Positions 1,680 through 40,647 of a stretch of DNA of 64,000 bases are shown one piece after another. Under the pieces are notes generated by a model. The model ran no database searches, was not told the DNA's origin, and saw only the letters and a list, made by a program, of their open reading frames with translations. The number at the start of each line of letters is the position of its first letter. Position 1 is the stretch's first letter. Origin of the DNA: a virus. The stretch spans positions 64,001-128,000 of IMG/VR virus record IMGVR_UViG_3300032308_002092; one strand, given 5' to 3'. Position numbers and translations under genes: made by a program.

Positions 1680-3086
1680 TTACTTGCCTGGGATCTTTAC
1701 TGTTTTAGACCAGGTGCGTTCTACGAACGGATGTTTTTCAGTACCGTCCTTCTCGATAACCCAAAGCACTTCTGGGAATCTTTGGTTTGGTCTTAGCCAG
1801 CTTTCTACACCTACGTCGCTGAAGTGTCCGTCAGTAAAAACTAGTGTCAAATCCGGGCTAGTCTTCAACACGTTCTTGAGTGTGTCTTCTAAGTCTGTGC
1901 CGCCCATCTTAACGTTGTTTCGTATGGTCTCTTGCCCTACTCGATCGCCCATCTTGTACGGTTGACTGTGGTACTCTTTATCAGAGAAGAGGTGTAGCGA
2001 GCACTTACGCGCGCCTGCTTTTAGGAACTCATCTACCACTTGTAGGAAGTTATTGAGCGTCTCTACGCTGATACTGCCGCTCGTATCGCACACTATGCGC
2101 AGCTTCGGCAACGGACCTTCCTTACTACCAGGGATCAGGTTTGGAAACCGCCTGCTCTTCCTAGTCCACGAATACCTACGGTCCTGCCCAGAAGCAGATT
2201 TCTTGATCGCAGCAAGTATGAGGGCTTTGTAGTTTAGTTCTGCTCGCCTAGACTTGATCTCTTCTAGCAGCTTGCTGACCATAGCGGGTAGTCTGTCATG
2301 ACCAGTAGATGACTTGATCATGGCTCGCTTCACCAGATCTTCCATGGCATCCAGCATCTCGTCTTCTTCTGCGTTGGCTTCCCAGCCGTGGCTGTCGAAC
2401 TCTTTTGGTATGCCCTTACCTTTACCCTTACCTTTGCTTTGGCCATCCCCATCACCATCTTCGCCGTCTTCGCCATCTTCTGGCTCTTTGTAGCGATCTT
2501 TTAGGCGTAGGAAGTACTGCTCCATGGTCTCGTTCTCTGGCCAAGGTGTCTTTTTGCCTTTGTCGTCTTCGTCGTGGAAGTTCTTGGCCAGCATGGCGTG
2601 ACCGGGACATAGTTCGTTTTGGCAAGCAGCGCCTTGCTGTAATTCTTCTATTGGCGGGCATTCCTTGCAGCCAGCCGGTAAGTCTCTGATGTAGTTGTTT
2701 ATTGCGAGATCTGCAGCGATATTTAGCAACTTACGGTTGTGGTTAGATATCTTGAAGAACGGCACACGTGTCAAATGTTTGTGCACTAAGTGAAACAACT
2801 CATGAAGTAGAACAGCTCTTCTATTTTCTTGACTTAGTTTCTTCACAAAAAACATAGGGTTAATGAGAAGCATATACTTCTTCTGATCAGCGCTAAAAGT
2901 AACACCAGCTGTATCTAGTTGAAAACTATAGGTAATGTCCATGCTTTGTAGCATAGAGCAATAGAAGGTGTTGTCCTTATAAATTTCATACAAAGCAGTC
3001 GCCAAAGCCTGAGAGCGTTCAGCCTCAGTTGTCGTGTCTTTAGCGGCTTTATCTGTAGATTTAAAAATAGTAGCAGGTGCGTTCAT
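1680..3086 (-). CDS. vWA domain protein with N-terminal HExxH putative metallopeptidase (DUF2201-like), partner of MoxR-type ATPase
   Basis: LLHELFH motif; MIDAS DTSGS, GGTD and FTDG motifs; acidic Gly linker; AAGGAGG SD. Confidence 0.85.
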   Translation of the reverse strand: MNAPATIFKSTDKAAKDTTTEAERSQALATALYEIYKDNTFYCSMLQSMDITYSFQLDTAGVTFSADQKKYMLLINPMFFVKKLSQENRRAVLLHELFHLVHKHLTRVPFFKISNHNRKLLNIAADLAINNYIRDLPAGCKECPPIEELQQGAACQNELCPGHAMLAKNFHDEDDKGKKTPWPENETMEQYFLRLKDRYKEPEDGEDGEDGDGDGQSKGKGKGKGIPKEFDSHGWEANAEEDEMLDAMEDLVKRAMIKSSTGHDRLPAMVSKLLEEIKSRRAELNYKALILAAIKKSASGQDRRYSWTRKSRRFPNLIPGSKEGPLPKLRIVCDTSGSISVETLNNFLQVVDEFLKAGARKCSLHLFSDKEYHSQPYKMGDRVGQETIRNNVKMGGTDLEDTLKNVLKTSPDLTLVFTDGHFSDVGVESWLRPNQRFPEVLWVIEKDGTEKHPFVERTWSKTVKIPGK

Positions 3087-3142
3087 GCTATCCTCCTTGT
3101 TGTTTATATTAGGATCGGGATATTACCTTGGACCGGTAGGGA

Positions 3143-3881
3143 CTATTGTCTTTCCCAAGGCTTTTCTGTCATGCACTCTGCGTGCCTAGGTGTGTCGCCA
3201 AATAACGCTCTGCAGAACGCAAAGGAGTGTTCGTACGTAGCTCGCACTCTACCTAGGTAGTATGAAGCAACTATGAGCATTATCAGTATAGATATGACGA
3301 ATATCATGTCTTTGTCGCTTCTTCGACTATCTATCACTCTGTTGCTCATAGGAACGTCCTCTTGAGCATGGCAGTCACATCCATGCCTTTCTCTCTACTA
3401 GCGGCTTCAGCAGCAGCCTTAAAGCGGTTCAGCAGTATGGCGGCAACTGCAACTGGGTCTGAGCCGTCTTGTATGGCGTTGGTTACCATTATATCGATGC
3501 TGTCGCTGAATAGCTTTAATCTAAGCGTCTCTGGATCCCGCTTGATCTTCTCCATGCCTAGATCTATTACGTCGGACATGTTTCTTCCTTGTCCTTTTCT
3601 GACCTTCTATAGGATCGGGATGGGGTCATTGCGAGCTTCTTCTCGTACCAAGTGGGAGGCGTTGGTGGTCTTTCTTGTGCGACTTTAGCGTGGGGCTCTA
3701 GGGGTGTTTCGTCGAACTTTTGGGGAAAGAGGGTCTTTTCTATGGCGTCCTCTTGGGCCTCTAACTGCTTCTCTTCTTGCTTCTTCTGTTTCGGAGTCTT
3801 TCGGTTAGATTTAATTTCCTTGTCTTTATCGTGTCTTCCGCGTTGCCTATGCCCAACTGGTATCCTGGGACCTGCGACCAT
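3143..3881 (-). CDS. Three small hypothetical proteins (3143..3349 with TM segment; 3346..3579; 3567..3881)
   Basis: Overlapping, co-oriented ORFs. Confidence 0.55.
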
Positions 3882-4793: not shown

Positions 4794-5073
4794 TGAATGC
4801 TCCATCATTGAAAGTGTCTCTGAGTCTGTCGAACGCGTGTGCCTTAAGGATGGTAATGGGGTCTGCACCTAGCACTGACAGTAGTTCGTCGATGGCTTTG
4901 TGCTCGTCACCGGGACTGTAGTCGGCAGAGTCTACCCACTCTATGTCATGCATAACATTTGCGAGTGCGTCGATAACTTTCTGCACGGCCAACCTGCGCA
5001 CATCTCTATCTCTGTTCTCGATAGCTAGGTCTTGCAGCTTGTGATAGAAGTAATCGTATGCTCCGCCGCTCAT
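4777..5073 (-). CDS. Hypothetical phage protein (MSGG.YDY...HDIEW..S.DY type)
   Basis: Clean 98-aa ORF in operon. Confidence 0.7.
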   Translation of the reverse strand: MSGGAYDYFYHKLQDLAIENRDRDVRRLAVQKVIDALANVMHDIEWVDSADYSPGDEHKAIDELLSVLGADPITILKAHAFDRLRDTFNDGAFNDDKR

Positions 5074-5079
5074 AGTCGC

Positions 5080-5382
5080 TTACTCCTTGTACTCTTTGAT
5101 CTTGGCCTTAATCTCTTCTACGGCTTCTTCAGCATCCTTCAGGGAGTCCTTGACATCTACGTCATCAGGGTACTTGCGTGCTTGTTGGCGCCAGAAGATG
5201 AGCTCTTCCTGCGCTGCGCGTAGCTGGGCCTTAAGCTCGTTTAGCGAGACCCTCTTCTCTAGAGCGTCGACTTGCGCCGCCTTAGCGTACCTGCTATCCA
5301 CCCAAGTGATTCCGCCAAACACAGTACCTGCCACTGCTACAATCGCAGTGAATAGCGTTAAGTATCCTTTTGCCTTGTCCAT
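5080..5382 (-). CDS. Membrane-anchored coiled-coil protein
   Basis: N-terminal hydrophobic helix followed by heptad-rich region; AAGGAG SD. Confidence 0.65.
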   Translation of the reverse strand: MDKAKGYLTLFTAIVAVAGTVFGGITWVDSRYAKAAQVDALEKRVSLNELKAQLRAAQEELIFWRQQARKYPDDVDVKDSLKDAEEAVEEIKAKIKEYKE

Positions 5383-5398
5383 AACGTATCTCCTTTAG

Positions 5399-5722
5399 TT
5401 AAAATTCTGAAGGCGTACCAACTGCGGTGCCGATACCATCGCCTTCGTCTTCGTTAAAAGTGTTGTCGCCATCGCCGTTCTCGTAGCCGTACATACTTCC
5501 AAAACCTTCTCCGTCGCCATCAGTAGAGCCAGTTAAGGGTCGTTTTGGAGATAATCTGATGATTGGGGAATCGTACTGATGGCCGCTACCCAACCCACCG
5601 CCAAAGACATACCCATATCGCTCTCCGTAGCCAGCGCCGTTGCCGTCTTGTGGGTATCCGTACTGACGATACCCATACCCGTTTATGGGTAGCACCTTCT
5701 CATTATCTTCGGTTTTACTCAT
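5399..5722 (-). CDS. Gly/Asp-rich small protein family member 1
   Basis: LPINGYG ... PSEF; start uncertain. Confidence 0.75.
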   Translation of the reverse strand: MSKTEDNEKVLPINGYGYRQYGYPQDGNGAGYGERYGYVFGGGLGSGHQYDSPIIRLSPKRPLTGSTDGDGEGFGSMYGYENGDGDNTFNEDEGDGIGTAVGTPSEF

Positions 5723-5736
5723 ATATTTATACTCAC

Positions 5737-6003
5737 TCACCAATCCGATGGGTTAAAATCGTCTCCATCGCCGCCACCATCCCCATCACCATCACCGCCG
5801 TCTCCGTCACCGAAGCCGTTTCCAAACGGATTGCCGTGCCCGTAGCCACAGTCATCGAAGCCGCGATTGCCATGGCCACAACCGTCACCACTCATGCTTC
5901 CATAGTCGTGGCCATAGCCGCAGCCAATGCCGTCACCCCCTATGTTTCCATAGGCTCCATCACCATAGCCATCTATATCGAACTCTTCCGTTAATACTTC
6001 CAT
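5737..6003 (-). CDS. Gly/Asp-rich family member 2
   Basis: FDIDGYG ... PSDW. Confidence 0.85.
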   Translation of the reverse strand: MEVLTEEFDIDGYGDGAYGNIGGDGIGCGYGHDYGSMSGDGCGHGNRGFDDCGYGHGNPFGNGFGDGDGGDGDGDGGGDGDDFNPSDW

Positions 6004-6006
6004 TAC

Positions 6007-6231
6007 TCACCACTCTGATGGCGGTATTTCTTCATCGCCGATACCGAAGCCATCTCCGTCGAATAGTCCATATACATCGCTACCGCTACCGTCCCCACCA
6101 CCAATGACATCCCCATATCGCGCTCCGTACCCATCGCCGTCGCCACGGCCATGGCCTGTACCGCCGCCGCGTTTATTGGTGTAAGGGTCTGCGTAACCGT
6201 AACCAATGCCATCTATCTCCAACTTATCCAT
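6007..6231 (-). CDS. Gly/Asp-rich family member 3
   Basis: LEIDGIG ... PSEW. Confidence 0.85.
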   Translation of the reverse strand: MDKLEIDGIGYGYADPYTNKRGGGTGHGRGDGDGYGARYGDVIGGGDGSGSDVYGLFDGDGFGIGDEEIPPSEW

Positions 6232-6237
6232 GTCACC

Positions 6238-6483
6238 TCACCAGTCCGATGGAGAGTAACCGTTGCCATCGCTATAACCATGCCCATCGCCGTCGCTTTC
6301 TCCGATATCGCCCCATCCTTCTCCGTCGCCGTTGCTATAACCGCATCCGTAGCCGTTGCCGTAACCTTCATCGTCAAAGGCGTCATACCATTCATGGTTG
6401 AGTTCTCCGTAACCGATGCCGTCGCCGTATGCGCCACTATCGCCATGGCCAAAACCGTCTATTGCCAACAGATATACTTCCAT
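6238..6483 (-). CDS. Gly/Asp-rich family member 4
   Basis: LAIDGFG ... PSDW. Confidence 0.85.
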   Translation of the reverse strand: MEVYLLAIDGFGHGDSGAYGDGIGYGELNHEWYDAFDDEGYGNGYGCGYSNGDGEGWGDIGESDGDGHGYSDGNGYSPSDW

Positions 6484-6487
6484 CTAC

Positions 6488-6733
6488 TTACCGCTCCGAG
6501 GGGTTGGTATTGAAATGGAGGTTACTGGCTGCGCCTTGGTAGCCGTATTCTTTATCGTACCCTCCGCCATCTAGCGCATGCTTCCAGTACGCGTCATCGT
6601 GGTAAGGGTGGCCACAACCGTCGCCATTGGATGCGAGAATATATCCTTCACCGTCTCCTCTGTTGTCACCGTTGTGCCAGCCATCGACTCCATCACCGTA
6701 CCCATCTATTTTTATCTCGTCTATTGTGGTCAT
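6488..6733 (-). CDS. Gly/Asp-rich family member 5
   Basis: IKIDGYG ... PSER. Confidence 0.85.
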   Translation of the reverse strand: MTTIDEIKIDGYGDGVDGWHNGDNRGDGEGYILASNGDGCGHPYHDDAYWKHALDGGGYDKEYGYQGAASNLHFNTNPSER

Positions 6734-6737
6734 CTGC

Positions 6738-6977
6738 TCACCGGTCTGAGGGGTTTAAGTGGGTGTGGTCTTCATCGTCTTCTATCCCCACACCATCGCA
6801 CCAACCTCCGTAGCTATCTCCATATCCCAAACTGTAGCCGGCATGAATCCGTATGCCGCAGCCGTGGCCGTCGCCATTAAAATCACCACCTTCTCTACAC
6901 GTGCCAAAGCCTTCGCCATTCAAGCGGTTATCTTCCGTACCCCAACCATTTATGTCTATCTTCTCTGCTACGATCAT
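6738..6977 (-). CDS. Gly/Asp-rich family member 6
   Basis: IDINGWG ... PSDR. Confidence 0.85.
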   Translation of the reverse strand: MIVAEKIDINGWGTEDNRLNGEGFGTCREGGDFNGDGHGCGIRIHAGYSLGYGDSYGGWCDGVGIEDDEDHTHLNPSDR

Positions 6978-6980
6978 TGC

Positions 6981-7199
6981 TCACCAGTCCGACGGGTCGT
7001 TAAGGAAGTAGTCTATCTCGCCAGAAGGCTCCAAATGACCGCTGTCTTGGCTGCCATCTTTGTACATAAAGTAGTAACCGAAGCCATCTCCGTTGAATAG
7101 TCCGTATATATCGCCGTAGCCAACGCCGTCGCCCACTTCGATCGTAGAAGACCAGCCGTCACCATAGCCATCTATTTCTAGGGTGTGCGTAGTTACCAA
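6981..7199 (-). CDS. Gly/Asp-rich family member 7
   Basis: LEIDGYG ... PSDW. Confidence 0.8.
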   Translation of the reverse strand: MVTTHTLEIDGYGDGWSSTIEVGDGVGYGDIYGLFNGDGFGYYFMYKDGSQDSGHLEPSGEIDYFLNDPSDW

Positions 7200-7462
7200 T
7201 CTGAGGGGTATCCTTCTGTTGAGCAGTAGCCTGTTATCTTTATAGGTGAACCGCTCCCGTCTCCAGTATGACTACCCCAACCATTAGAATAATCGTGGCC
7301 GCCACCATCGCCGTCGTCGTCTGTGTCAAAGTTAGTTGAGAACTGACCATAGTAGTGGCAGTACCCTTGTCCGTTGCCATTTTCAAACAACTTGTATCCG
7401 ATAAAGGATGCTGCGTCCTCTGATCCAATGCCAGTTATGGTTAGCGGTTCTGCCAACTCCAT
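7193..7462 (-). CDS. Gly/Asp-rich family member 8
   Basis: LTITGIG ... PSDW. Confidence 0.8.
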   Translation of the reverse strand: MELAEPLTITGIGSEDAASFIGYKLFENGNGQGYCHYYGQFSTNFDTDDDGDGGGHDYSNGWGSHTGDGSGSPIKITGYCSTEGYPSDW

Positions 7463-8277
7463 CTACTCAGCTTCCTGGTCCTTGGGTTGAGACTTCTTGG
7501 CGTGCTTGTTGCAAGTGTGTCTGATCCAGTAGCCTTCGTCTGGACCCACGTCCTCGCCAGTGCCGCACACTGAACATATGTTTCCAGTGATGATCTCGTA
7601 GGTGTCGGTTATACTGGTTATAACTTTGTCTACGTTGTCGCCATAGTCGTGCGTGTAGTAACACCGCAGTGTTCCAAACTTCTCTTTGATCTGAGAGAAC
7701 CTGATCCTGGGGAATAGCGAGACTAGTGTACCCACGTAGTTCTCGATTACTTGGTCCCAACCCTCAGGGGTCTCGATTGTCCTACCGCGTAGGTATTGAG
7801 AGAACTGCTCTGGGTACTTGTCGAATAGTTTTTTAGTAATGTCTTGGCTGCTCATTTTATCCTCACTCATACTCGTTGTGGAAACGGACTTCTTTGAGAA
7901 GAGGTCCCTGACCAAAGGCGTGGCCAAACTCGTCCACCTTGGTCACATTGATCGAGTCTGTATCCATGTGTTGCCAAACGACTACGTAAGCATGGAACGA
8001 CTCTGTCTGCGTAGGGTCTTGGAACAAGCCCAGGACCTTGTGCTTGCCATCAATCAGATAAGTCTTGCTTGCGTCGATTCTCTGTGATCTCTTTGATGAT
8101 GCGTACATTCTCTCTCCTTTTCTCGTCTTCGTTGATTATCTCTAACACTCTTTTGTTGTACTCTTCGGCCATAGACCTTATCTTTCGTATCCTATTTATA
8201 AGGTCTTCAGCTTCCTTATCCAAGGGAGATTTCCCTTTTGACTCTCGGTATGCCCTTAGGTCTATTACTTTAGTCAC
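7463..8277 (-). CDS. Three hypothetical proteins (7463..~7855 with QIKEKFGxLRxY and CxxC; 7863..8108; 8050..8277)
   Basis: Contiguous ORFs; QIKEKFG motif recalled as common in phage hypotheticals. Confidence 0.65.
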
Positions 8278-9471: not shown

Positions 9472-10596
9472 TTACTTGGCCTTGTTGAGCTTGATGTTAG
9501 CTTTCAGAACTTCTACGAGCTGAGGGTGCTTGGCTGCGAGGTCTTTGAAGAAGGTAGCTACGTTAGTTCCCTTACCGCTTTGGCCGCAGCTTCGAAGTAG
9601 GTCGATCGCCAAATCGCTTGGGATGATGCTGGCTACTTCGACCATCAAGTCTTCGCTGATCTCATTCTCTTTAGGCTCGCGTCCACCGTAGTTCTTGGAG
9701 ATAGACTCAATGGTTACTGAGATGTAGTCGCCCTTGTAGTTACTTGGGTTGCTCTGCTCTTTCAGCTTCTTGAGCGAAGCGGATTTGCTAGTGAGCAGAT
9801 CTTGCGCTGTAACTGGAGCTTCAGTGTGAACATACTTCCAGAACTCGCTGCCAATGCCTTTACCCAAGATGCTGATGCACAGCTGTCGGTGCATGGTTCT
9901 ATCTTCTAGACCACCCGACTTGTGAGCTGCGTTCAGCCTACTCCATGTACGAGGAGAGATGTATACTGAGTCCTTGCCCAAGGAGCTAGGCTCTTTGTAG
10001 ATCCAAGCGCCAGACTTCACGAAGTTTTGGATATGGTCGCAGAACTTGTTTGTCTCCATGAAATCAACGAAGCCGTTGTGATCATAGTCGATATCGAAGT
10101 GAACGAATCTGTCTTTAAGCGCTGTGTCTGCGGAGTTCGTATCGTACTCTGAGGACTCTGGGTTGTTAGATGTAGCGATTACCCAACCACTCGGTAGCTT
10201 ATAGTTAGGGCCGACGCCTCGACTAGCGTCAGTGAGCTGCATCAAGCAGTTCATTACCGCAGACGTAGATCTGAGCGACTCGTCGAGAAAGATGAGTCCC
10301 TCTGAGTCTTTACCTCGTGGCCAGAACTCCGGAACATAGTGCGTCGTGACCTTACTACCATCTTCCAGTCTTTCCTGTTGCGGTAAGCCGATGAAGTCAG
10401 GTGCTTCCAAGAACGCACAGCGAAGCATCAAGAAACCGAAGTCAGGGTTTCGCTTTCTTTGCTTCTCAACCCACTGCATGACCTGCTCAGTCTTGGAAAG
10501 ACCGGCATGGCCAATGAAGGATGGGTTCAAGGTGTATCCTTGCTTGCGGGCATTGAGGGCTAGATCGAGAACATCTGAAATTTTACTAGGTTTCAT
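9472..10596 (-). CDS. MoxR-like AAA+ ATPase
   Basis: Walker A GHAGLSKT, DFIGLP, Walker B LIFLDE, sensor SNN, ALKDRF, SPRTW. Confidence 0.85.
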   Translation of the reverse strand: MKPSKISDVLDLALNARKQGYTLNPSFIGHAGLSKTEQVMQWVEKQRKRNPDFGFLMLRCAFLEAPDFIGLPQQERLEDGSKVTTHYVPEFWPRGKDSEGLIFLDESLRSTSAVMNCLMQLTDASRGVGPNYKLPSGWVIATSNNPESSEYDTNSADTALKDRFVHFDIDYDHNGFVDFMETNKFCDHIQNFVKSGAWIYKEPSSLGKDSVYISPRTWSRLNAAHKSGGLEDRTMHRQLCISILGKGIGSEFWKYVHTEAPVTAQDLLTSKSASLKKLKEQSNPSNYKGDYISVTIESISKNYGGREPKENEISEDLMVEVASIIPSDLAIDLLRSCGQSGKGTNVATFFKDLAAKHPQLVEVLKANIKLNKAK

Positions 10597-19995: not shown

Positions 19996-20346
19996 CTACC
20001 CACCGTAGTAGAACGGTGAGTCGGGTAGGTAACTGAGTAGGTGTATGGTTTTATTGAGTCCAGTGTACGAATCGACTATAGTTTTTGTTCCCCATCGGTT
20101 TATATTACCTCTGTTGATAATAATCTTGCCAAGTTCTTTACCGTTAGAGTCGATGACTATCAGCAACACGTGTGTATCGAAATTAACAATACCGGGTAAA
20201 ATGAAGTTGATCTGACTTGAATCCAAAGATAGGTTGCCACTGTAAGCGTTTTCTTGTTTTACTACGTATTTTCCTAGATAAACTGTCTCTTTCATGCGTT
20301 CTCCTTTATTACTTCTTGGTTCTCTCGATATACGCTTCGATCTCAC
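19996..20346 (-). CDS. Hypothetical protein
   Basis: ORF, probable start at MKETVYL after AAGGAG. Confidence 0.55.
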   Translation of the reverse strand: MRSKRISREPRSNKGERMKETVYLGKYVVKQENAYSGNLSLDSSQINFILPGIVNFDTHVLLIVIDSNGKELGKIIINRGNINRWGTKTIVDSYTGLNKTIHLLSYLPDSPFYYGG

Positions 20347-20917
20347 TTAGTGGCACCGGGGTGAAGTTCCAGGCATCGACACCCACGTGGATCTGCTGTC
20401 CGCGGAATCTTTGTGCGTTGTGGGTATGTCCATGGATCAGATACTGCCCGTGCTGCTCTGGTCTACGGTCTAGGTACCTAAGGTCGTTCCTAGAGCTTGT
20501 CATCCTAAAGAGCTGTTTGAACCAGCCCACCGCTTTCTGCTTCTTACTGGGGGCGAACGGGTAGTGCTTGATCTGTACGTCTTCGCCTGCTATGTTTAGC
20601 CATAGGTCCTCAAGCACATACTCAAAGCCGAAGCTGAGCATCTTTCGAGGTGAGAAGTCGTGGTTACCACGAACTAGTATCTTCCTGCCGTTTAGCCTAT
20701 CCATTATCTTAGTGCAAGAGATTATGTTCTTTACGAAGAAGCAGTCTCCGACCCACACGCAGATGTCTTCTGGTCCGACTACGGAATTGTAGTTCTTGAT
20801 CAGAGTCTCGTGCATCTCAGTGAGATCCGCAAACGGTCGGTTGCAGAGTCGAATCACGTTCTTGTGGAAGAAGTGTGGGTCTGACCAGAAGAATACTCTA
20901 GCATTTCCAAGATTCAT
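20309..20917 (-). CDS. Calcineurin-like metallophosphoesterase
   Basis: SDPHFFH, VGD, RGNHD, HYP, HGHTH, VGVD. Confidence 0.9.
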   Translation of the reverse strand: MNLGNARVFFWSDPHFFHKNVIRLCNRPFADLTEMHETLIKNYNSVVGPEDICVWVGDCFFVKNIISCTKIMDRLNGRKILVRGNHDFSPRKMLSFGFEYVLEDLWLNIAGEDVQIKHYPFAPSKKQKAVGWFKQLFRMTSSRNDLRYLDRRPEQHGQYLIHGHTHNAQRFRGQQIHVGVDAWNFTPVPLSEIEAYIERTKK

Positions 20918-21889: not shown

Positions 21890-22186
21890 TTACGCTTCGG
21901 ATGGATACTCACTATCGTCGCCGTCACCGCGACCATCGCTATTTCCGGTATTGCCATCGCCGTCGGTGTGGCCATAATTAGTGCCAAAGCCGTAGCCATC
22001 CCCGTGGGTAAGTATGAACTGCTCGTCTGCATCTCTGTGACCAGACGCATACCCATCCCCTTCTAGGCAGAAGAAGTAGAAACAATGGTGCTGATCATTT
22101 CCATAGCCGTTTCCACTCATATATTTACTCATATACATAGAGTGGGGTGATCCGCTACCATCTATTTCTAGCTTGCCTGTGATCAT
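21890..22186 (-). CDS. Gly/Asp-rich family member 9 (isolated)
   Basis: LEIDGSG ... PSEA. Confidence 0.8.
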   Translation of the reverse strand: MITGKLEIDGSGSPHSMYMSKYMSGNGYGNDQHHCFYFFCLEGDGYASGHRDADEQFILTHGDGYGFGTNYGHTDGDGNTGNSDGRGDGDDSEYPSEA

Positions 22187-22677
22187 TTATCATACTTCCT
22201 AAACCTAGGTTTAGTGAATAATTCTTTGACACAGTAGTCCCATTTGTCTTTTGCCATATTGATCTTGTTTCGATCGATGTAGGTGCTGATCAAACAACTA
22301 TCGTCATCGTGGTCCTGGTCTATAGCGTGGCCTAGCTCGTGGTACATGGTCATCCTAAGATCGGGCGTCTGCGGGTCGATCACTATAGATCTGATCACGC
22401 CATACTGTGGGGTAGCTTTGTCTTTGAATGAGTTAGATTCCCTCATCCACCCCCACCTACTACGGTGGACACCGATAGTGTTGTCTTCTAAGTCGCCCCA
22501 TCGAATACTAGTTATGGTCTCTTTGGCTACGTTGCACTCTTTGCGGTAGTCGGTATTCTCGCAATCTGCAAAGAACTGCTCTACGTATGGTCTGAGATCA
22601 GGGTCTATGTCCATGTCGTCGACCAACGTAGAGCCGCAAGAGGATAGTAGTGGCAGCAAAACAAGTAGCTTTTTCAC
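22183..22677 (-). CDS. Lipoprotein zinc metallopeptidase
   Basis: MKKLLVLLPLLSSC lipobox; HELGHAIDQDH. Confidence 0.75.
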   Translation of the reverse strand: MKKLLVLLPLLSSCGSTLVDDMDIDPDLRPYVEQFFADCENTDYRKECNVAKETITSIRWGDLEDNTIGVHRSRWGWMRESNSFKDKATPQYGVIRSIVIDPQTPDLRMTMYHELGHAIDQDHDDDSCLISTYIDRNKINMAKDKWDYCVKELFTKPRFRKYDK

Positions 22678-22700
22678 GCGAACACCTCACTGACACTGCT

Positions 22701-23819
22701 TCACTTTACTTGGAACTTATACTCATCTTGAGTTACAAGTCGGAACGTAGACCCGCCGTCTACAGAGATCTCAAGAGCGAGAGCGATCTGTGTTGCTGGG
22801 CCTTGGAAGTAATCGATCGAGAAGGAATGCCATCCTGGTAATGCCCATGCGGTACCGTTCTTGGATTGCGGAGGATGTAGACCGTCGTTGTCGATGATCG
22901 TGATCTCGCAATCGCCAAGGCGGAATCTTGCACCGTCGTCGCTGGTCAATCTGAAAACACACTTGTCGTCTTTGCAAGCAGGTAGCTCGATGAATCCTCG
23001 GTATTGGATGCCGTACCATGTTGTCTTCGTAAATGCCGGCGTAAAGGTGCCTGGGTAGCCCAAGCTTGACTGCCTGTTGAATATAGACAGATCGTTGACC
23101 TTAACCGAGGAGACGGGCGTCATGGAGCTGTAGTTGGGTATCGAAGGCGTGTTGACTGCAAGGTCGTATACGTTGCCCTTGAGACCGAATGACCAGCAGC
23201 CGCCAGCGCAGCCATCGTTGATCACAGTCGTGCCGTTAGCGCAAGTGATAGTGGTCTGACCCAGCGAGTTAGTGCCTAGCGTACAGCCGACGCCATCTTT
23301 TCCGTCTTTACCATCCTTACCAGCAACACCTGTGTTACCAGTATCGCCTTTGTCACCCTTAGGGCCTTGGAGGAGTTTGTAAGCAGTCGAGTCGGTACAG
23401 CGAACCCATCCGTCTGACGTGACTGTGCAAGACGTTCCGTTAGTTCCATTGGTTCCGTTAGTTCCATTAGCACCCTTGTCGCCTTTATCTCCCTTATCTC
23501 CTTTGTCACCCTTAACGGAGACAAACTCAAATGCCAATCCATTAGGACACTTAACCTTAACCATGCCGCTCTCTACTTTGGAGATGCACTGGTTACAGTC
23601 TTTTGAGTTAGGAAAGGCAGGTGGCAGAGCAACTGTTTGACCGCCAGTACATGTAAGCGATGCGCCATCTGGTGTGACTGTGCAAAGCCCGAGTTCTTGG
23701 TCCTGCATGTCTACTGAGCCTTGTGGTGCTTCCTCACCCGGAAGAGGGACAGTCATTGTGGGCTCGCCACCACATGCGGAAATCAACAACGGAACTATAA
23801 AAACAAACCTCTTAAGCAT
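22701..23819 (-). CDS. Lipoprotein with collagen-like repeats and C-terminal PA14 domain
   Basis: ISAC lipobox; GDK/GTN/GKD triplets; FRLTSDDGARF, IIDNDGLH, IDYFQG. Confidence 0.85.
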   Translation of the reverse strand: MLKRFVFIVPLLISACGGEPTMTVPLPGEEAPQGSVDMQDQELGLCTVTPDGASLTCTGGQTVALPPAFPNSKDCNQCISKVESGMVKVKCPNGLAFEFVSVKGDKGDKGDKGDKGANGTNGTNGTNGTSCTVTSDGWVRCTDSTAYKLLQGPKGDKGDTGNTGVAGKDGKDGKDGVGCTLGTNSLGQTTITCANGTTVINDGCAGGCWSFGLKGNVYDLAVNTPSIPNYSSMTPVSSVKVNDLSIFNRQSSLGYPGTFTPAFTKTTWYGIQYRGFIELPACKDDKCVFRLTSDDGARFRLGDCEITIIDNDGLHPPQSKNGTAWALPGWHSFSIDYFQGPATQIALALEISVDGGSTFRLVTQDEYKFQVK

Positions 23820-23832
23820 ACTCTCTCCTTGT

Positions 23833-24414
23833 TTAGAAATTAAATCCACCGGTTACATAGAAGCTTTGTTGTAAAGTAAAAGCAGCACCAAGCGACAAAG
23901 AACTGAAGTCCCTGATATACATAAGCCCGACATCTGGCTCGTACTTGGCTTTAGCGGTTGCGGTACAGCACGAGTCAACCGTGGCATATGGTTGAGTCTT
24001 AGACATACCGAGCAAGAACATCAGTCTGTTTGGGTCAGACACAGTTACCTTCTTGATCTCGGTGCGGATGCGGACGCGTTCGATGTAACGCACTGGAGCT
24101 TCCTTCCTAGATCCAGAAGTATCGCCAACGTTGATATTGAAACGGTTCACGTTGATGTTGTTAACATCTGTTTGAACACCGTCTTTGTCACAGCAAGGAT
24201 CTACCTTATCTACGACCTTAATCTCAGGCTTAGCAACCACTGGCTTGACAACCGCAGGCTTAGTAACTACAATGGTCTTCTTTGGCTTAGGCTTTGTCGC
24301 TTTTTTAAGCGGACACGGAGCCTCTGTTTTAGCTTTCTGCTCTGTTGCTTCGCAGACAGAACCCAAAGCAATACTGGGTAAAACCATTAGATACAAAATA
24401 CCAAGACGCTTCAT
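23833..24414 (-). CDS. Exported Cys-rich protein with C-terminal amphipathic beta strands ending in Phe
   Basis: Signal peptide; terminal FYVTGGFNF resembles an outer-membrane beta-signal. Confidence 0.55.
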   Translation of the reverse strand: MKRLGILYLMVLPSIALGSVCEATEQKAKTEAPCPLKKATKPKPKKTIVVTKPAVVKPVVAKPEIKVVDKVDPCCDKDGVQTDVNNINVNRFNINVGDTSGSRKEAPVRYIERVRIRTEIKKVTVSDPNRLMFLLGMSKTQPYATVDSCCTATAKAKYEPDVGLMYIRDFSSLSLGAAFTLQQSFYVTGGFNF

Positions 24415-31900: not shown

Positions 31901-33936
31901 TTAGTCTATTGCTGCGTAGTCATCTGGGAAGAAGGTTTCTTCTTCCATCTGACGGCTATTGAAGTCTAGCTGCTCATACACATCGTCTTCATAGTCGGAC
32001 AAATAGATATAATCTTGGTTGATTTGCACCGTGTTCACGACCATACCATCGGGCATAACCACGGTTGAATTAGGATCTTGTTGCGAAAGAATCTTAATGA
32101 GTTCTGAAACCAGCATATCAAACCTCCTTTATTTACTTGTGCATATTGATTCGGGAATCATGACCTGAGTGTTAGTCTAGTTCCATCTGGCATCGTCGTA
32201 TAGCTTACGTCGGATGGTAAGGCACTGGTCACTCTAGTGAAGGTTTCTAGTTGCTTGCCTTTACCATCGAACGATCGCGCGCAGCCTGTGCCATCACACA
32301 AGATGAATGAGTCTTGGTTGTAAGTCTGAGCCATGCTCTTCATCAAGTCAAACAACGACCAGCCTATGGTGTTAGGCGAACCACTTACAAGCCAAACATT
32401 CTCCATCTGATCTTTGTAAGATCCTCTGACGTACGTAGTTTTAAACCCATTCATCCTAATGAAGAAGCCTAGCTGCTCATGATCCTGCATATTTCTAATG
32501 TCGTCTTTGTCGCTTTTGTCTGCGGAGATCAGAGCGAAGATAGTATCTAAATCTAGTTTCATGTTAACCCCACTTTCGTTTGTTTGCTAAAACACAAAGT
32601 ACACCAAAGAATAAAGATATTAAGAACTTGAAAAAAGCATACTCAAGATTGCCGTTAATCAAATCAAACCATCCAAATACCTGTAGGAAGATACTTACGA
32701 TAAACAGCGCGATGGCTAAGTTCACTTGCCTCTCCTTACGATCAGGAGGATCGCGGTAATTATTTTCTTAAAAAAGTCAATCATCTTTCTCTCCTTCTTT
32801 TTCTGGGTGAAATTTATCGAGCACCTTAGCGAAGATCATCAGCAGCAGTACTGTTACTGCGAGCCCACCGATTATTGATATCGGTATCGCGACTCCAATA
32901 GCTATAACGTAAAGCAATATACTCATTAGCTAACTTCCTCGCTTTCCTCGTAGATGTACCAGTCATTGGGCTTAAGACTAGCTGTCTTCTGCTCATACTC
33001 GTGTTTGCCGTATGAATACGCGAAGGCTCTGCCGTTCCAAACTATGAACGGAGCTGGGTGATCTTTGTGTGAGATCTTAGCTCCCTTGAGGGCCTCAATC
33101 AATGCTTCTTCTAGAGTCATGATCAGCTCCAATCGTTAGGGTCTTTGTTTTTGCCCTTGACTTCTTCGTAGAAGATAATACAAAGCAATCCCACCATGAA
33201 GATGCCACCAAAGAAACCCGCTATAGAAATTGCAGCCATGAATCCTGTTAATGCTGAGTCCACGATATTACTCTCCTAGTATTTGTTGCTCTATTTGTTG
33301 CGTCATATATTTGTCTAACGTGAACTGAATAACATGGTTGTGAACATCTTTTACCTTTAGATAAACCGAATGAGGTGTTAGATCGCCTCTTGAATTCAGA
33401 TAGCAGTTCGCTACTAGCTTAAAGGAATAAGGGGTTTTTGGATGTTTTATGGTCTTAGATACTGTGGTGTACGACTTACCTTTTCGCTTAGCACACTCTT
33501 TAACAGCATAATGGTAGTGAGAGATAAGGGCGTCTAGGGTAAATTCGCTGCCTTCTACTGGACCCAGGCTTAGGTCTATGATTGTTCTATGCTCTCCAGT
33601 AACCGTAAATAAACACATGTTGCTAACCCCTACTCGTTATCGTTGAATAGTATTGGTTTCGGATACTCACTTAAGGTCTTGTGTCTCTGAGTAGAGAAGG
33701 TGTGACATAGAGTCCATCACCACAAGAGTACTCTGCTTGCCATACTTAGACACCATGTCTGCCTTGAGGGAGCGAAACTCAGCTCTACACTTCTCTCGCT
33801 CTGCGACTTCTCTGAAGTATTGTCTACCCTCGGCGGCCTCGTAGTAAGAGAGATCAGCTATGGATACTATAAATTTTTTGATTAGCTCGCAATTGTAGTT
33901 CATGCAACCTCCAATAAGATATTGGATCGGGATCAC
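31901..33936 (-). CDS. Run of small hypothetical early genes (31901..32116, 32158..32562, 32926..33132, 33268..33618, 33667..~33903 and several <60-aa TM peptides)
   Basis: Co-oriented ORFs, several preceded by the CCGA motif and SD. Confidence 0.55.
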
Positions 33937-34163
33937 CTATCGGATGGGTTGCCGTGGCCGTTATCGCATAAGTCTTCTCCACAGCCAGCGCCACCGCCAC
34001 ACCCATCACCATAACCGTTGCCATCGCCATAGCCATCACCACTAGGGCTGCAATTACTTAAACCACAGCCATAACCATCGCCGCTTTTCTTAATATAGTT
34101 GTCACCATTGGGTCTACCGTAATGGTAACCGTAGCTAAAACCATCTATTTCTAGAGATTCCAC
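33933..34163 (-). CDS. Gly/Asp-rich family member 10
   Basis: LEIDGFS ... PSDR. Confidence 0.82.
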   Translation of the reverse strand: MESLEIDGFSYGYHYGRPNGDNYIKKSGDGYGCGLSNCSPSGDGYGDGNGYGDGCGGGAGCGEDLCDNGHGNPSDR

Positions 34164-34169
34164 GATAGC

Positions 34170-34388
34170 TCACCAATCAGATGGGTAGTGATCGAACCGA
34201 TCTTCGGTGCCACTACCGCAACCATCACCATACTCATCGCTATGTCCATCACCTCTGCCATAACCGTCGCCGTCAGCAGTGCCACCACTTAAACCCCAAC
34301 CATCACCATCGCTGTAAGTATGACTATCGCCGTTGGCCATGCCGTAACGATCGCCGTAACCAAAAGCATCTATTTTTAGAGATTTCAT
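34170..34388 (-). CDS. Gly/Asp-rich family member 11
   Basis: LKIDAFG ... PSDW. Confidence 0.85.
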   Translation of the reverse strand: MKSLKIDAFGYGDRYGMANGDSHTYSDGDGWGLSGGTADGDGYGRGDGHSDEYGDGCGSGTEDRFDHYPSDW

Positions 34389-34408
34389 GGTTTATTCTCA
34401 GTCTGAGA

Positions 34409-34744
34409 TTAAAGCCACTTATTCAAGTCAGCTTTCATCACAAAGATATCCTTACCGAAGATCGTACCAGCTTCGTTTAGCACAGTCTCAGCCTGAGGAC
34501 CTTCGACGCACAGCTGGCCGAGACCCTTGGTCGTACCCCATCGGTGGATGTTGTAGGCGTTGTCAAGCCTGATTCTCTCGCTGGAGAGGCGAGTAACGAA
34601 GCCGATGAATACCCAACCGCGATCCATGACTGCGATGACTAGATCGCCGTTCTCATAGTCAAGCTTAGGCTGAGGTGCGCCTCGCAAAGACTCCTCAACC
34701 TGACTGTTGATTACATAATTACCGAATAACTTACTCTTAGCCAT
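34409..34744 (-). CDS. DUF6948-like phage protein
   Basis: VMDRGWVFIG...LDNAYNIHRWGTTKGLGQL..EGP, recognised from memory; own CCGATA motif and AAGGAGG SD. Confidence 0.7.
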   Translation of the reverse strand: MAKSKLFGNYVINSQVEESLRGAPQPKLDYENGDLVIAVMDRGWVFIGFVTRLSSERIRLDNAYNIHRWGTTKGLGQLCVEGPQAETVLNEAGTIFGKDIFVMKADLNKWL

Positions 34745-34881
34745 AATAAACCTCCTTTGTTTCTGTCTATATTTATATCGGAAATGATACTCTGTGGACC
34801 GTTACAATCCTCTTTCGCTGTTATACATCAGAAATACAATCGCAACAGTGAAACCAAGTATAAGTAGCGCAAATACACTCA

Positions 34882-35097
34882 TTAAGAAATCTCGCTTGCT
34901 TCTACGTATTGGCTGAAGATTTCTGGGTATCTTTGTACGTAACCGTTGTCTTCTAGGAAGTAGTACAGAGCTACACCAGGTGGTACTTCGTCATCGAAGT
35001 TGCTCCGCCAAGCGTAGTCTTCGAAGTCACTCGTAGTTAATCCCGTGACCTTAACACACAGCTTATCTACTTTGTTCATGTAAGACTTGAAAGACAT
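34882..35097 (-). CDS. Hypothetical protein
   Basis: 71-aa ORF. Confidence 0.55.
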   Translation of the reverse strand: MSFKSYMNKVDKLCVKVTGLTTSDFEDYAWRSNFDDEVPPGVALYYFLEDNGYVQRYPEIFSQYVEASEIS

Positions 35098-35155
35098 ACA
35101 AACCCCTTATTGAAGACACCCCATCGTTGGGATATATAATCTGGTTTCGGGATTC

Positions 35156-35350
35156 TCACCAGTCTGATAGATCATCGTAGCCATAACAGTCACCGTAGCT
35201 CTCTCCATCACCATTTCCATAGCCGTATCCGCTACCACTACCGTCGTATTCTGTAATGATGATGATATTAGGGCCTTCAGAGCCGCTGTCGCCGTCACCG
35301 TTATAGTGGCCGTCACCACAACCCCAGCCATCTATTTCTAGCTTGTCCAT
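35156..35350 (-). CDS. Gly/Asp-rich family member 12
   Basis: LEIDGWG ... LSDW. Confidence 0.82.
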   Translation of the reverse strand: MDKLEIDGWGCGDGHYNGDGDSGSEGPNIIIITEYDGSGSGYGYGNGDGESYGDCYGYDDLSDW

Positions 35351-35356
35351 TGCTCT

Positions 35357-35596
35357 TCACTTATCTGACGGGCCGTGATGGCCCTTGCCACTGCCATCTC
35401 CAACAACGAGATCTTGCCCCAGACAATTTAGATCATAACCATAGCCATCGCCATTAGGGAGGCTGTCTCCGTAGCCACAGCCATACCTCTCTCCATCGTA
35501 GCCATAACCATAGTTCCCATGGACACCACTGCCATCGCCGCAGAAGTAACCGTGAAAGCGTCCATAACCTAAGCCGTCTATGTCTAGCTTGTCCAT
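35357..35596 (-). CDS. Gly/Asp-rich family member 13
   Basis: LDIDGLG ... PSDK. Confidence 0.85.
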   Translation of the reverse strand: MDKLDIDGLGYGRFHGYFCGDGSGVHGNYGYGYDGERYGCGYGDSLPNGDGYGYDLNCLGQDLVVGDGSGKGHHGPSDK

Positions 35597-35599
35597 GGT

Positions 35600-35896
35600 T
35601 TATGCTTTACGCTTCTTCTTTTGGCCGTCTTTGATGGCCTGAACCTCTGCTTGGTCAAGCGGGACACCGTGGCGGTACCAGCTATCACCCCACACCGCGC
35701 CGTCTTCCCAGTAGGTTATAGCAGGGCTACCCTCACGATGTAACCTACCTTGGCAATACCAATACTCGGTGTCTACCTTGCCGTCTTCGCTATAGTAGAC
35801 AATGGCAGGGCCATCCACACGATGTGGAACACCCTCCTCCAGGTATCGCTCGGACTCTACCTTACCGTTTTCGTAGTGTTTCTTAACGCACTCCAT
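35600..35896 (-). CDS. MORN-variant / HRxDGPA repeat protein
   Basis: YENGKVESERY..G.PHRVDGPAIVYY and LHREGSPAITYW repeats. Confidence 0.75.
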   Translation of the reverse strand: MECVKKHYENGKVESERYLEEGVPHRVDGPAIVYYSEDGKVDTEYWYCQGRLHREGSPAITYWEDGAVWGDSWYRHGVPLDQAEVQAIKDGQKKKRKA

Positions 35897-35908
35897 AAAT
35901 CTCCTTGA

Positions 35909-36148
35909 TTACCAATCTGAAGGCATGTCATGATCATCACCTGAACCCCAGCCGTTGCCGTGGTTGTAGGACGTATCACCATAGCCAACACCATCGCGAT
36001 AAATTGGGTGATAGCCACGACCATGGAGATCACTGCCACCATTGCCCCAGCCATCCCCACTCGCCATGGAGTATTCACCTTCTCCCTCGCCGTTACCATC
36101 CCACCAACAGTCTGGTGAGCCGTCGCCATCTATGTCTAGCTTTTCCAT
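35909..36148 (-). CDS. Gly/Asp-rich family member 14
   Basis: LDIDGDG ... PSDW. Confidence 0.85.
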   Translation of the reverse strand: MEKLDIDGDGSPDCWWDGNGEGEGEYSMASGDGWGNGGSDLHGRGYHPIYRDGVGYGDTSYNHGNGWGSGDDHDMPSDW

Positions 36149-36155
36149 AAGTTAG

Positions 36156-36422
36156 TTACCAATCTGAGGGTTCTAAATCTTCCCCATCACCAGCACCATC
36201 TCCACCGGTGTCGCCACCAGAACCGTCGCAATAACCATCACCGCCGAGGGTGGTATAACCGCTGCCTCTTCCGTCGCCGGTTCCAGTGCCGCAGTCGCCG
36301 TCGCCATAGCGATCGTCTGGTATAGAGGGGCTATAGCAACCTATACCGCCGTCCCCATTAGGGGACGTTCTGTCTACACCACAACCAAATCCATCCACAG
36401 CGAGCTTGCTTTCTAATATCAC
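36156..36422 (-). CDS. Gly/Asp-rich family member 15
   Basis: LAVDGFG ... PSDW. Confidence 0.82.
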   Translation of the reverse strand: MILESKLAVDGFGCGVDRTSPNGDGGIGCYSPSIPDDRYGDGDCGTGTGDGRGSGYTTLGGDGYCDGSGGDTGGDGAGDGEDLEPSDW

Positions 36423-36434
36423 TTAATATGTCCT

Positions 36435-36668
36435 CTACCAGTCAGAAGGGTCACCCTCAGGCTGTATCTCATGGAATTGGATGAATGTCATAGAATCGGA
36501 TTTTGTGAGTTCGTGTTCGCCGTAGCCATAGCCGTCACCATTTGGTTTGGTTCTGCCTATGAAGCTATCTGGCGTTTTTACGCCCTCTCCAAAGCCGTCG
36601 CCATGTATCCTACCGTATTGACCATAGCCGTAGCCAACTCCGTCTACGATCGTCTCGCCTATCTTCAT
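36435..36668 (-). CDS. Gly/Asp-rich family member 16
   Basis: TIVDGVG ... GDPSDW. Confidence 0.82.
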   Translation of the reverse strand: MKIGETIVDGVGYGYGQYGRIHGDGFGEGVKTPDSFIGRTKPNGDGYGYGEHELTKSDSMTFIQFHEIQPEGDPSDW

Positions 36669-40572: not shown

Positions 40573-40590
40573 ATGTAACACTCCTTAATT

Positions 40591-40647
40591 AGACTCATCA
40601 GTGCCAGAACCTACTGGCAGATACCCTTGCTATCGGGTATTTCGTCT
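40591..40647 (-). ncRNA. Type II hammerhead ribozyme HH-d
   Basis: AGAC-GAAA-UACCC(8)GGGUA-UC/-UGCCAG(6)CUGGCA-CUGAUGA-GUCU; AUC cleavage between 40620 and 40619. Confidence 0.92.

Follow-up and report, generated by a model that had tools for sequence, protein, structure and literature searches.

Diversified Gly/Asp-rich mini-proteins of a phage genome as candidate partners of a predicted Sm-like DUF6948 protein

Positions 5399-7462 of the DNA described here hold eight consecutive minus-strand open reading frames (ORFs) of 72-107 amino acids (aa), set -7 to +6 nucleotides (nt) apart, which encode small glycine- and aspartate-rich proteins with similar beginnings and endings. The DNA, hereafter the window, comprises 64,000 nt (bases 64001-128000) of a 151,207-bp IMG/VR phage record, IMGVR_UViG_3300032308_002092, that is ~91% complete; coordinates without a prefix are those of the window. 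Why would a phage line up so many related mini-genes, and what might recognize their shared ends? An original prediction, made from the sequence alone, had suggested that the ends are read by a shared partner, and had named a MoxR-like ATPase and a von Willebrand factor A (vWA)-like protein among the candidates. The answer favoured here, with a probability of roughly 0.5, is that the ORFs encode an expanded family of glycine-X (Gly-X) partners of an Sm-like DUF6948 protein, for which they would act as exchangeable tails in trans.

Coding evidence and character of the mini-protein family

The original description of eight tightly coupled ORFs with fixed end motifs was confirmed in both coordinates and motifs: hxI[DNT]GxG (h, hydrophobic; x, any residue) opens 8/8 ORFs and PS[DE][WRF] closes 8/8, and such an array of fixed-ended ORFs is far beyond chance. 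In a profile search of the whole 151-kb genome, the family comprised 16 paralogues (E 1e-7 to 1e-20), of which eight lie at 5399-7462 (array 1), one at 21890-22186 and seven within 33933-36668 (array 2); no member was found outside the window, and the earlier count of sixteen proved exact. In all 16, an LxIDGxG-type motif stands at the N-terminus, GDGxG repeats follow, and PS[DE]x closes the chain, reading LSDW in the product of 35156-35350.

Comparison with homologues shows that the eight ORFs are protein-coding genes of this paralogous family. Open frames are kept in 16/16 members and in more than 18 homologues, and orthologues differ at positions 1, 2 and 3 of the Gly-frame codons with frequencies of 0.25, 0.22 and 0.39, respectively. 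The ratio of nonsynonymous to synonymous substitution rates (dN/dS) is 0.19-0.44 for array members vs. 0.08-0.15 for flanking genes; dN itself is 3-5 times that of the flanks, and array orthologues are 48-63% identical, compared with 77-91% over aligned codons (64-88% over the full length) for the flanking proteins. Two window members have no recognizable orthologue in L001, a 29-kb Logan contig bearing a syntenic array, which implies gene turnover. At six of ten internal junctions, a Shine-Dalgarno-like GGTGAG lies 5-9 nt before the next start. This hexamer is made by the final Trp codon and the stop (TGG TGA G), so that the fixed last residue is partly a nucleotide-level constraint; the preceding Pro-Ser-[Asp/Glu] is a protein-level feature, since it persists in members not followed by another of the family. 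Within the array, neither a promoter nor a terminator was found on the minus strand.

Glycine accounts for 25% of family residues (19-35% among members), aspartate for 14%, tyrosine for 8% and serine for 7%; within GxG triplets, aspartate is foremost (56), followed by tyrosine (32) and then serine, cysteine and asparagine. This agrees with the make-up by which the Gly-X proteins discussed below were defined: glycine at every other residue, X chiefly Asp, Tyr, Ser or Asn, and an acidic net charge. The proteins are acidic (pI 4.05-4.6, net charge -7 to -19) and carry no hydrophobic segment or signal peptide. Each core holds four to five recurrent GDGxG units at irregular spacing, through which the cores, previously called unalignable, can be aligned. 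The companion claim of constant ends around a hypervariable core holds in that these are diversified proteins with conserved end motifs, but the ends are only moderately better kept than the core: identities for N-terminus, core and C-terminus are 65, 50 and 63% between orthologues, and 36, 31 and 51% between paralogues. On the sense strand, GG autocorrelation peaks at 6, 12 and 18 nt, corresponding to a glycine period of two residues. Tandem Repeats Finder nonetheless detected almost no DNA tandem repeat in the window array, vs. 24-29 copies of 6-12 nt units in the homologues of a distant phage contig, L010.

The family proteins are predicted to be disordered. The AlphaFold2 (AF2) model of the 34170-34388 product, built on a 35-sequence alignment, has a predicted local distance difference test score (pLDDT) of 46.1 and no secondary structure as assigned by DSSP; its highest confidence (pLDDT 64) falls in the N-terminal 10 residues. 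Structure neighbours listed in the ESM Atlas for the 35909-36148 product were disregarded because of the pLDDT of their source model (0.36). Among the ten members scanned, no Pfam or PHROGs family was detected, and the only matches were sub-threshold, low-complexity hits to TrAA12 and SGP.

The DUF6948 gene and its Gly-X neighbour

Array 2 contains the genome's only DUF6948 gene (34409-34744, minus strand, 111 aa), whose product matches Pfam DUF6948 below the cut-off (E 8.5e-5), falls in Atlas clusters that are DUF6948, and evolves with a dN/dS of 0.09. Using a DUF6948 alignment (a single DUF6948 protein as query retrieved none), we gathered, by DUF6948 alone, 43 independent phage or prophage loci. 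IMG/VR supplied 10 of them and GTDB genomes 33, those from GTDB mostly on contigs of metagenome-assembled genomes labelled Cyanobacteria, Planctomycetota, Bacteroidota, Alphaproteobacteria, Actinomycetota, Chloroflexota, Candidate Phyla Radiation (CPR) groups and others. In 40 of the 43, a (Gly-X)n ORF stands immediately downstream of DUF6948; among the three exceptions, one has no contig room left and one carries Gly-X ORFs elsewhere in the locus. The Gly-X ORF starts within or next to the final codons of DUF6948, at an ATG contained in the AAA-TGG of a conserved terminal Lys-Trp or in an ATGA/GTGA overlap, and it occupies the +2 frame in 41/44 loci. Read from the gene layout, this is the pattern of classic translational coupling.

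In the window and in three other contigs (L007, L010 and L011), the gene that directly follows DUF6948 is a member of the window family. Members in L010 keep a KLxIDGxG start and a GNPSD end around cores that are plain hexanucleotide repeats. The hidden Markov model (HMM) of the window lineage gave E values of 2e-10 and 3e-10 for the L010 members and of 1e-5 to 1e-9 for the Gly-X ORFs in L012-L018; low complexity raises scores of this kind, and a more specific link is provided by the N-terminal hxh[DN]GxG motif that these proteins share. In two planctomycete proteins from a JGI metagenome (P0054 and P0055), a TIGR02996-type N-domain, a GYGDG repeat and a DUF6948 barrel form one chain; the two differ from each other mainly in repeat length. 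Across 46 loci, DUF6948 is the only conserved neighbour, and occasional ones (RecT, a PD-(D/E)XK exonuclease-type nuclease, DNA polymerase) place the module in an early replication-recombination region.

The idea of a shared partner thus receives strong comparative support from the 40 loci and the fusions, which would assign that role to the DUF6948 protein of 34409-34744 instead of the MoxR-like or vWA-like protein; linkage of the latter two to the arrays is synteny internal to the lineage and is missing from distant module-bearing loci. The prevalence of the +2 frame raised the possibility that a programmed -1 frameshift joins DUF6948 and the Gly-X ORF in one product, but this was rejected as a general explanation: that frame follows from start codons placed in A-TGG or NTGA at the gene end, the DUF6948 stop in the window precedes the opening of the Gly frame, and 15 of the members are not preceded by a barrel gene. 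Literature searches on DUF6948 and on GYGDG-type strings returned nothing relevant, and no functional study of the module was found in them. On the available sequences, the DUF6948/Gly-X pair is an undescribed module, with the Gly-X gene mostly unannotated, whose phage and prophage carriers span a dozen or more bacterial phyla.

The DUF6948 protein is predicted to adopt an Sm-like fold. Its AF2 model (pLDDT 84.7) has an N-terminal helix (H4-21) and five strands, with strand positions at residues 35-40, 45-52, 57-68 and 88-104; strands 3 and 4 are separated by a short helix. This is the arrangement of the Sm fold, in which a helix at the N-terminus precedes five strongly bent strands. In a Foldseek search against the Protein Data Bank (PDB), the top 50 matches to this model were all Sm, LSm or SmAP proteins (E ~1e-3, target template-modelling score 0.5-0.68), and VIA-align superposition of the barrel on Sm proteins gave Z scores of 6.7-8.2, with root-mean-square deviations of 1.7-3.4 Å over 56-78 residues. 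The nearest models in BFVD are DUF6948 proteins and a protein of the Rheinheimera phage Barba; further down stand a cyanophage "Sm-like domain" protein and a Gordonia phage "RNA binding protein". At the sequence level, no match to solved Sm proteins was found with phmmer and profile searches against all PDB sequences (E up to 10), and Pfam returned only DUF6948.

Elsewhere, the module usually pairs a barrel gene with a single Gly-X gene, or at times two or three, whose core is a slippage-prone hexanucleotide repeat; in the window the Gly-X gene is present in 16 copies in three places, with diverged cores and a PS[DE]-aromatic C-terminus specific to the lineage. The family is therefore best described, on these comparisons, as a lineage-specific expansion (one barrel to 16 partners) of a widespread phage module, in which the usual hexanucleotide-repeat core has been replaced by non-repetitive cores diverged through substitution. 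An unrelated AT-rich phage (IMGVR_UViG_3300021180_000001) carries an independent tandem array of at least 13 mini-genes of 59-100 aa (L015:2042-6236) around and after its own DUF6948 gene (2992-3270); their products are rich in Gly, Asp, Tyr and Phe, and most have an MRLxxLD start and a CD end. Since this array has fixed ends of its own, expansion with fixed ends is a recurrent evolutionary outcome, and together with the fast divergence of the window family it suggests conflict-driven or target-driven diversification.

Array members, flanking genes and relatives

All family members lie on the minus strand. Array 1 begins with an 89-aa member ending in PSDW (7193-7462; orthologue L001:1769-2044, 49-51% identity), within whose last codons lies the TTG start of the second (6981-7199, 72 aa). 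The third (6738-6977, 79 aa, ending in PSDR) has GGTGAG just 5' of its ATG. Two 81-aa members follow, at 6488-6733 (ending in PSER; orthologue L001:2755-3000) and 6238-6483 (ending in PSDW; orthologue L001:3005-3250, dN/dS 0.42), then one of 74 aa at 6007-6231 (ending in PSEW) and one of 88 aa at 5737-6003 (ending in PSDW; orthologue L001:3254-3487, dN/dS 0.20). The eighth and last (5399-5722, 107 aa, ending in PSEF) is in a frame that is open up to a TTG at 5743 (ORF 5399-5743); the ATG at 5722 is the likelier start because the orthologue, L001:3749-4069 (61% identical), begins at the same Met. Between 5533 and 7428, alternative-frame ORFs stay open across almost all members, those on the same strand rich in Ala, Val, Thr and Met and those on the opposite strand in His, Arg and Ile. 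They result from the 6-nt GGN-NNN periodicity, and a length-greedy gene caller chooses several of them over the real array 1 genes.

Immediately upstream of array 1, a minus-strand gene (7463-7927, 154 aa) encodes a protein without a Pfam match whose C-terminus is zinc-ribbon-like (Cys-x2-Cys ... His-x-Cys). It is 64% identical to its L001 orthologue over the full length (77% over aligned codons), and its dN/dS of 0.15 is the highest among the array 1 flanking genes compared (0.08-0.15). At a greater distance, the array is bracketed by a DUF2201 metallopeptidase/vWA-like gene (1680-3086) and a MoxR-like AAA+ gene (9472-10596), both on the minus strand.

The solitary member (21890-22186, 98 aa, ending in PSEA) lies near a metallophosphatase gene (20309-20917). 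Beside it, the minus-strand stretch 22183-23849 encodes two predicted lipoproteins, one with an HExxH-like motif; the second, of 382 aa, contains collagen-type GDK/GTN triplet repeats and a weak PA14 match.

Array 2 opens with members of 77 aa (36435-36668), 88 aa (36156-36422) and 79 aa (35909-36148), the last being the top family-profile match, with orthologues P0012 and P0021 and a dN/dS of 0.44 relative to L007. The series is then broken by a minus-strand MORN-variant repeat gene that is not a family member (35600-35896; weak Pfam MORN_2 match, syntenic in L007), after which come members of 79 aa (35357-35596, ending in PSDK) and 64 aa (35156-35350). Downstream of the DUF6948 gene stand a 72-aa member that starts 21 nt past the DUF6948 stop (34170-34388) and the last member, of 76 aa, with a GTG start and the ending PSDR (33933-34163).

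No Rfam match reached the gathering score anywhere in the window. At 40584-40647 (minus strand), a sub-threshold match to the type II hammerhead ribozyme spans the full model length (29.4 bits vs. a gathering score of 37, E 0.014).

The family is rare. An exhaustive HMMER search of 1.84 billion cluster representatives gave 27 matches, and all of the short ones come from this phage lineage. A search of 50,697 phage records with 12 kb of the genome (megablast) and with a 575-aa ORF of the structural region (tblastn) gave no match, so that the lineage has no cultured relative in that set. Syntenic arrays are present in three related phages, and the terminal motifs, whose conservation across phages had been proposed as a check, are kept in homologues from four other phage contigs. 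L001 has a nine-member array between the same flanking genes, with ThyX and a DUF2201 vWA-like gene downstream; L007 repeats array 2, including the MORN-variant and DUF6948 genes; and in L006 two members ending in PSEA or PTEA adjoin a Metallophos gene. The order SLT, MoxR-like, array, ThyX, DUF2201 is common to L001 and L002, and the distant L010 keeps the order SLT, ThyX, DUF2201, member. Between array and ThyX, L001 has a SIR2-family gene and two ORFs (L001:4396-4977, compared with window 4868-5080) that are absent from the window and thus mark an accessory-gene indel beside the array. The array of one relative is letter-identical across five sequencing runs, and a search of the 151-kb genome for RVT_1 gave no match. 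On these grounds a diversity-generating retroelement target was rejected, and the variability is evolutionary and not a product of hypermutation.

Competing readings, mechanism and known systems

How might one barrel protein use 16 partners? In the mechanism considered here, the conserved hydrophobic strand motif LxIDGxG at the N-terminus of each mini-protein would dock it on the Sm-like barrel, and the mini-protein would then supply in trans an exchangeable, acidic, Tyr-rich disordered tail, comparable to the acidic disordered C-terminal domain of Hfq. The chain would tune binding, and the 16-member set would diversify the hub by changing which RNA, DNA or host factor it takes up or lets go; a second contact point would be offered by the short PS[DE]-aromatic tip at the C-terminus. 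Taken alone, this docking-and-tuning scheme is tentative, and we hold it to be less probable than the broader view of the family as expanded partners of the barrel. Doubtful, too, is its widest form, in which Sm-like barrel and Gly-X chain make up an unrecognized, phylum-spanning system whose 16 tails give one hub many specificities, for instance for capturing or releasing different host or rival RNAs or defence proteins, and thus serve protein-level, combinatorial counter-defence or RNA control.

Several observations weigh against a tail-and-barrel partnership. The Sm-like call comes from a predicted model with middling Z scores (7-8), and sharing a small-barrel fold is in itself no proof that a protein forms rings or binds RNA. 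DUF6948 proteins lack a basic character (pI 4.9-7.8 and, in one case, 10.0), so that a simple electrostatic or nucleic-acid-mimic model is not obviously favoured. The N-terminal motif varies by clade: hxh[DNT]G occurs in about a quarter of 68 Gly-X ORFs, and others have an LGEDSQ type. The array 1 genes are 27 kb away from the barrel gene, to which they are linked by paralogy with its adjacent members, and a 1:16 stoichiometry would be odd for obligate partners.

Among other explanations, the mini-proteins could be free-standing decoys for anti-defence or host takeover, that is, acidic disordered polyanions that mimic nucleic acid or an acidic, aromatic-ended tail such as the SSB C-terminus and sponge up host defence or replication proteins, with the Sm-like gene a mere co-expressed neighbour or chaperone. 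Their strong negative charge would suit such a role, as would the position of the arrays among early and nucleotide-metabolism genes (and, elsewhere, of the module beside RecT, PD-(D/E)XK exonuclease and DNA polymerase), the three- to fivefold dN with gene turnover, the independent expansion in two phage lineages, and the acidic and aromatic C-terminus (PSDW, PSEW or PSEF), which we take to resemble the tails of SSB and T7 gp2.5. Decoys would, however, leave the near-universal coupling to DUF6948 and the occasional fusion unexplained, and the distant homologues are plain low-complexity repeats that offer no specific surface; we regard this reading as unlikely. Composition also invites a comparison with FUS-type [G/S]Y[G/S]-like chains. 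Glycine-spaced and Tyr-rich, with GYG the second commonest GxG triplet and disorder predicted, the proteins might scaffold a condensate or gel with a multivalent Sm-like protein, in an early RNA or replication compartment; the predicted fold of the partner is that of ring-forming Sm proteins, and many paralogues would raise the dose. This is an argument from composition alone, and it seems improbable: strongly negative chains tend not to self-associate unless cations or a basic partner are present, and the barrel is not basic.

The remaining readings are poorly supported. Folded repeat proteins binding Ca2+ or another metal (beta-roll or polyglycine-II), serving as ion sponges or structural elements, would account for the four to five GDGxG units per protein and the frequent Asp, His and Cys, and AF2 can miss metal-dependent folds. 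The original prediction had raised both a polyglycine-II bundle and Ca2+ binding, and neither such a bundle nor RTX-type Ca2+ repeats found support. The glycine period is two residues (6 nt) vs. three in the stacked helices of polyglycine-II bundles, known from snow-flea antifreeze protein and the gp38 adhesin tip, and nine in the tandem GGxGxDxUx nonapeptides of RTX; spacing between GDG units is not conserved; ten members searched against Pfam at E up to 1 matched neither HemolysinCabind nor another repeat family; and both the AF2 model, without secondary structure, and the ESM model are of low confidence, although prediction cannot exclude a fold. We consider a metal-dependent fold quite improbable. 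More improbable still is the suggestion, also raised originally, that these are precursors like those of ribosomally synthesized and post-translationally modified peptides (RiPPs), with a conserved leader and follower and processing, cyclization or export by a shared enzyme. Conserved ends, a variable middle and tandem copies are indeed the layout of cyanobactin and prochlorosin precursor arrays. Here, however, the cores are 50-90 aa long, signal or export motifs are absent, no protease or modifying-enzyme domain was found among the array neighbours, and the conserved partner, a small barrel of 105 aa, gave no match resembling an enzyme; the 151-kb genome contains no radical-SAM or YcaO gene (LanM, ATP-grasp and prolyl oligopeptidase maturases were not individually searched). 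Equally slight is the chance that the ORFs are incidental to a DNA or RNA element, such as a slippage-prone GGN-NAY repeat, an attachment site or a guide-RNA array. The strong 6-nt GG periodicity of the sense strand would fit, as would the pure hexanucleotide repeats of other phages, one of which, in Iodobacter phage phiPLPE, appears in the literature solely as a 'GC-rich repeat' (PMC3391216). Against this reading speak the excess of third-position differences and the dN/dS below 1, both in the Gly frame, the persistence of starts, stops and amino-acid motifs despite diverging DNA, and the near absence of DNA-level tandem repeats from the window array; no Rfam family was recognized at gathering score. 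A specific candidate of this kind was provided by VIPR vrRNA arrays, in which 9-16 tandem YNNGG pentanucleotides, an alternation of GGY and NN, and a conserved tail lie beside a Vipr RAMP gene, sometimes with interspersed hammerheads (bioRxiv 10.64898/2026.04.26.720920). It was rejected, as neither strand of the window has a run of at least four YNNGG and the GG period is 6 rather than 5 nt; the Vipr protein was not searched for.

The partnership of an expanded Gly-X family with an Sm-like barrel remains the favoured reading, and the window offers good material for pursuing it. Because its 16 partners are not simple repeats, individual members can be distinguished, deleted and assayed, and the end motifs provide concrete peptides for binding tests; a second independent expansion makes multiplication of the partners a recurrent outcome. 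If the barrel is a tail-tuned hub for RNA or host factors, it would represent a new principle of phage gene regulation or counter-defence, as well as a case from nature of a "tail", intrinsically disordered, that is provided in trans. Even if the proteins are inert fillers, the annotation of many phage genomes would be corrected.

Gene clusters of comparable form are known from T4-type phages, whose internal-protein loci encode a conserved N-terminal capsid-targeting sequence on unrelated, fast-changing bodies. They resemble the window arrays as clusters of small early or injected phage proteins with a short shared N-terminal address and rapid divergence, but there is no homology, and the conserved partner of the window family is a small barrel protein. 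A closer counterpart is found in a cultured phage, Rheinheimera phage vB_RspM_Barba1A (MK719701), whose gp018 and gp017 are both annotated as hypothetical proteins: the barrel protein is 40% identical (BFVD fold match E 1e-9), and directly downstream of its gene stands that of a small, acidic, Gly/Tyr/Asp-rich protein with a hydrophobic-x-hydrophobic-[DNT]-G start. The phiPLPE genome apparently has the same kind of gene pair. Its '(KMGCCG)35 GC-rich repeat', described as a possible attachment site (Comeau et al. 2012), reads on the opposite strand as a Gly-[Asp/Tyr/Ser] ORF of 81 aa (L056:1046-1291, minus strand; EU876853 46045-46290) that had not been annotated. The ORF overlaps gp84 at its end, and the middle of the 125-aa gp84 protein is DUF6948-like by eye only. 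In contrast to the window genes, this ORF is single-copy and purely repetitive, and was published as a DNA repeat.

Sm barrels bearing glycine-rich tails are familiar from cellular proteins. In eukaryotic SmB, SmD1, SmD3 and LSm4, the barrel carries a long disordered tail of Gly dipeptides, in this case basic Arg-Gly, in cis, which is methylated and read by Tudor domains; the phage module shares the small Sm-type barrel and the Gly-containing dipeptide repeat, but its repeats are acidic and mostly supplied in trans. Among bacterial proteins, Escherichia coli Hfq joins an Sm core to a disordered C-terminal domain whose tip is acidic, and this tail tunes RNA binding and release (PMC5606850), and the C-terminal domain of Acinetobacter baumannii Hfq is a (GGFGGQ)n repeat (PMC11617691). 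The phage parts differ from Hfq in that they are usually separate genes, with a Gly-Asp/Tyr repeat that is strongly acidic throughout and that stands N-terminal to the barrel in the fusions; the predicted barrel has an extra helix between strands 3 and 4 and no detectable sequence similarity to Hfq or Sm proteins. What Hfq and the phage module would have in common is the pairing of an Sm-type barrel with a glycine-rich, aromatic-containing disordered segment that ends in acidic residues, a pairing for which natural single-chain fusions of the phage barrel and a Gly-X repeat are also known.

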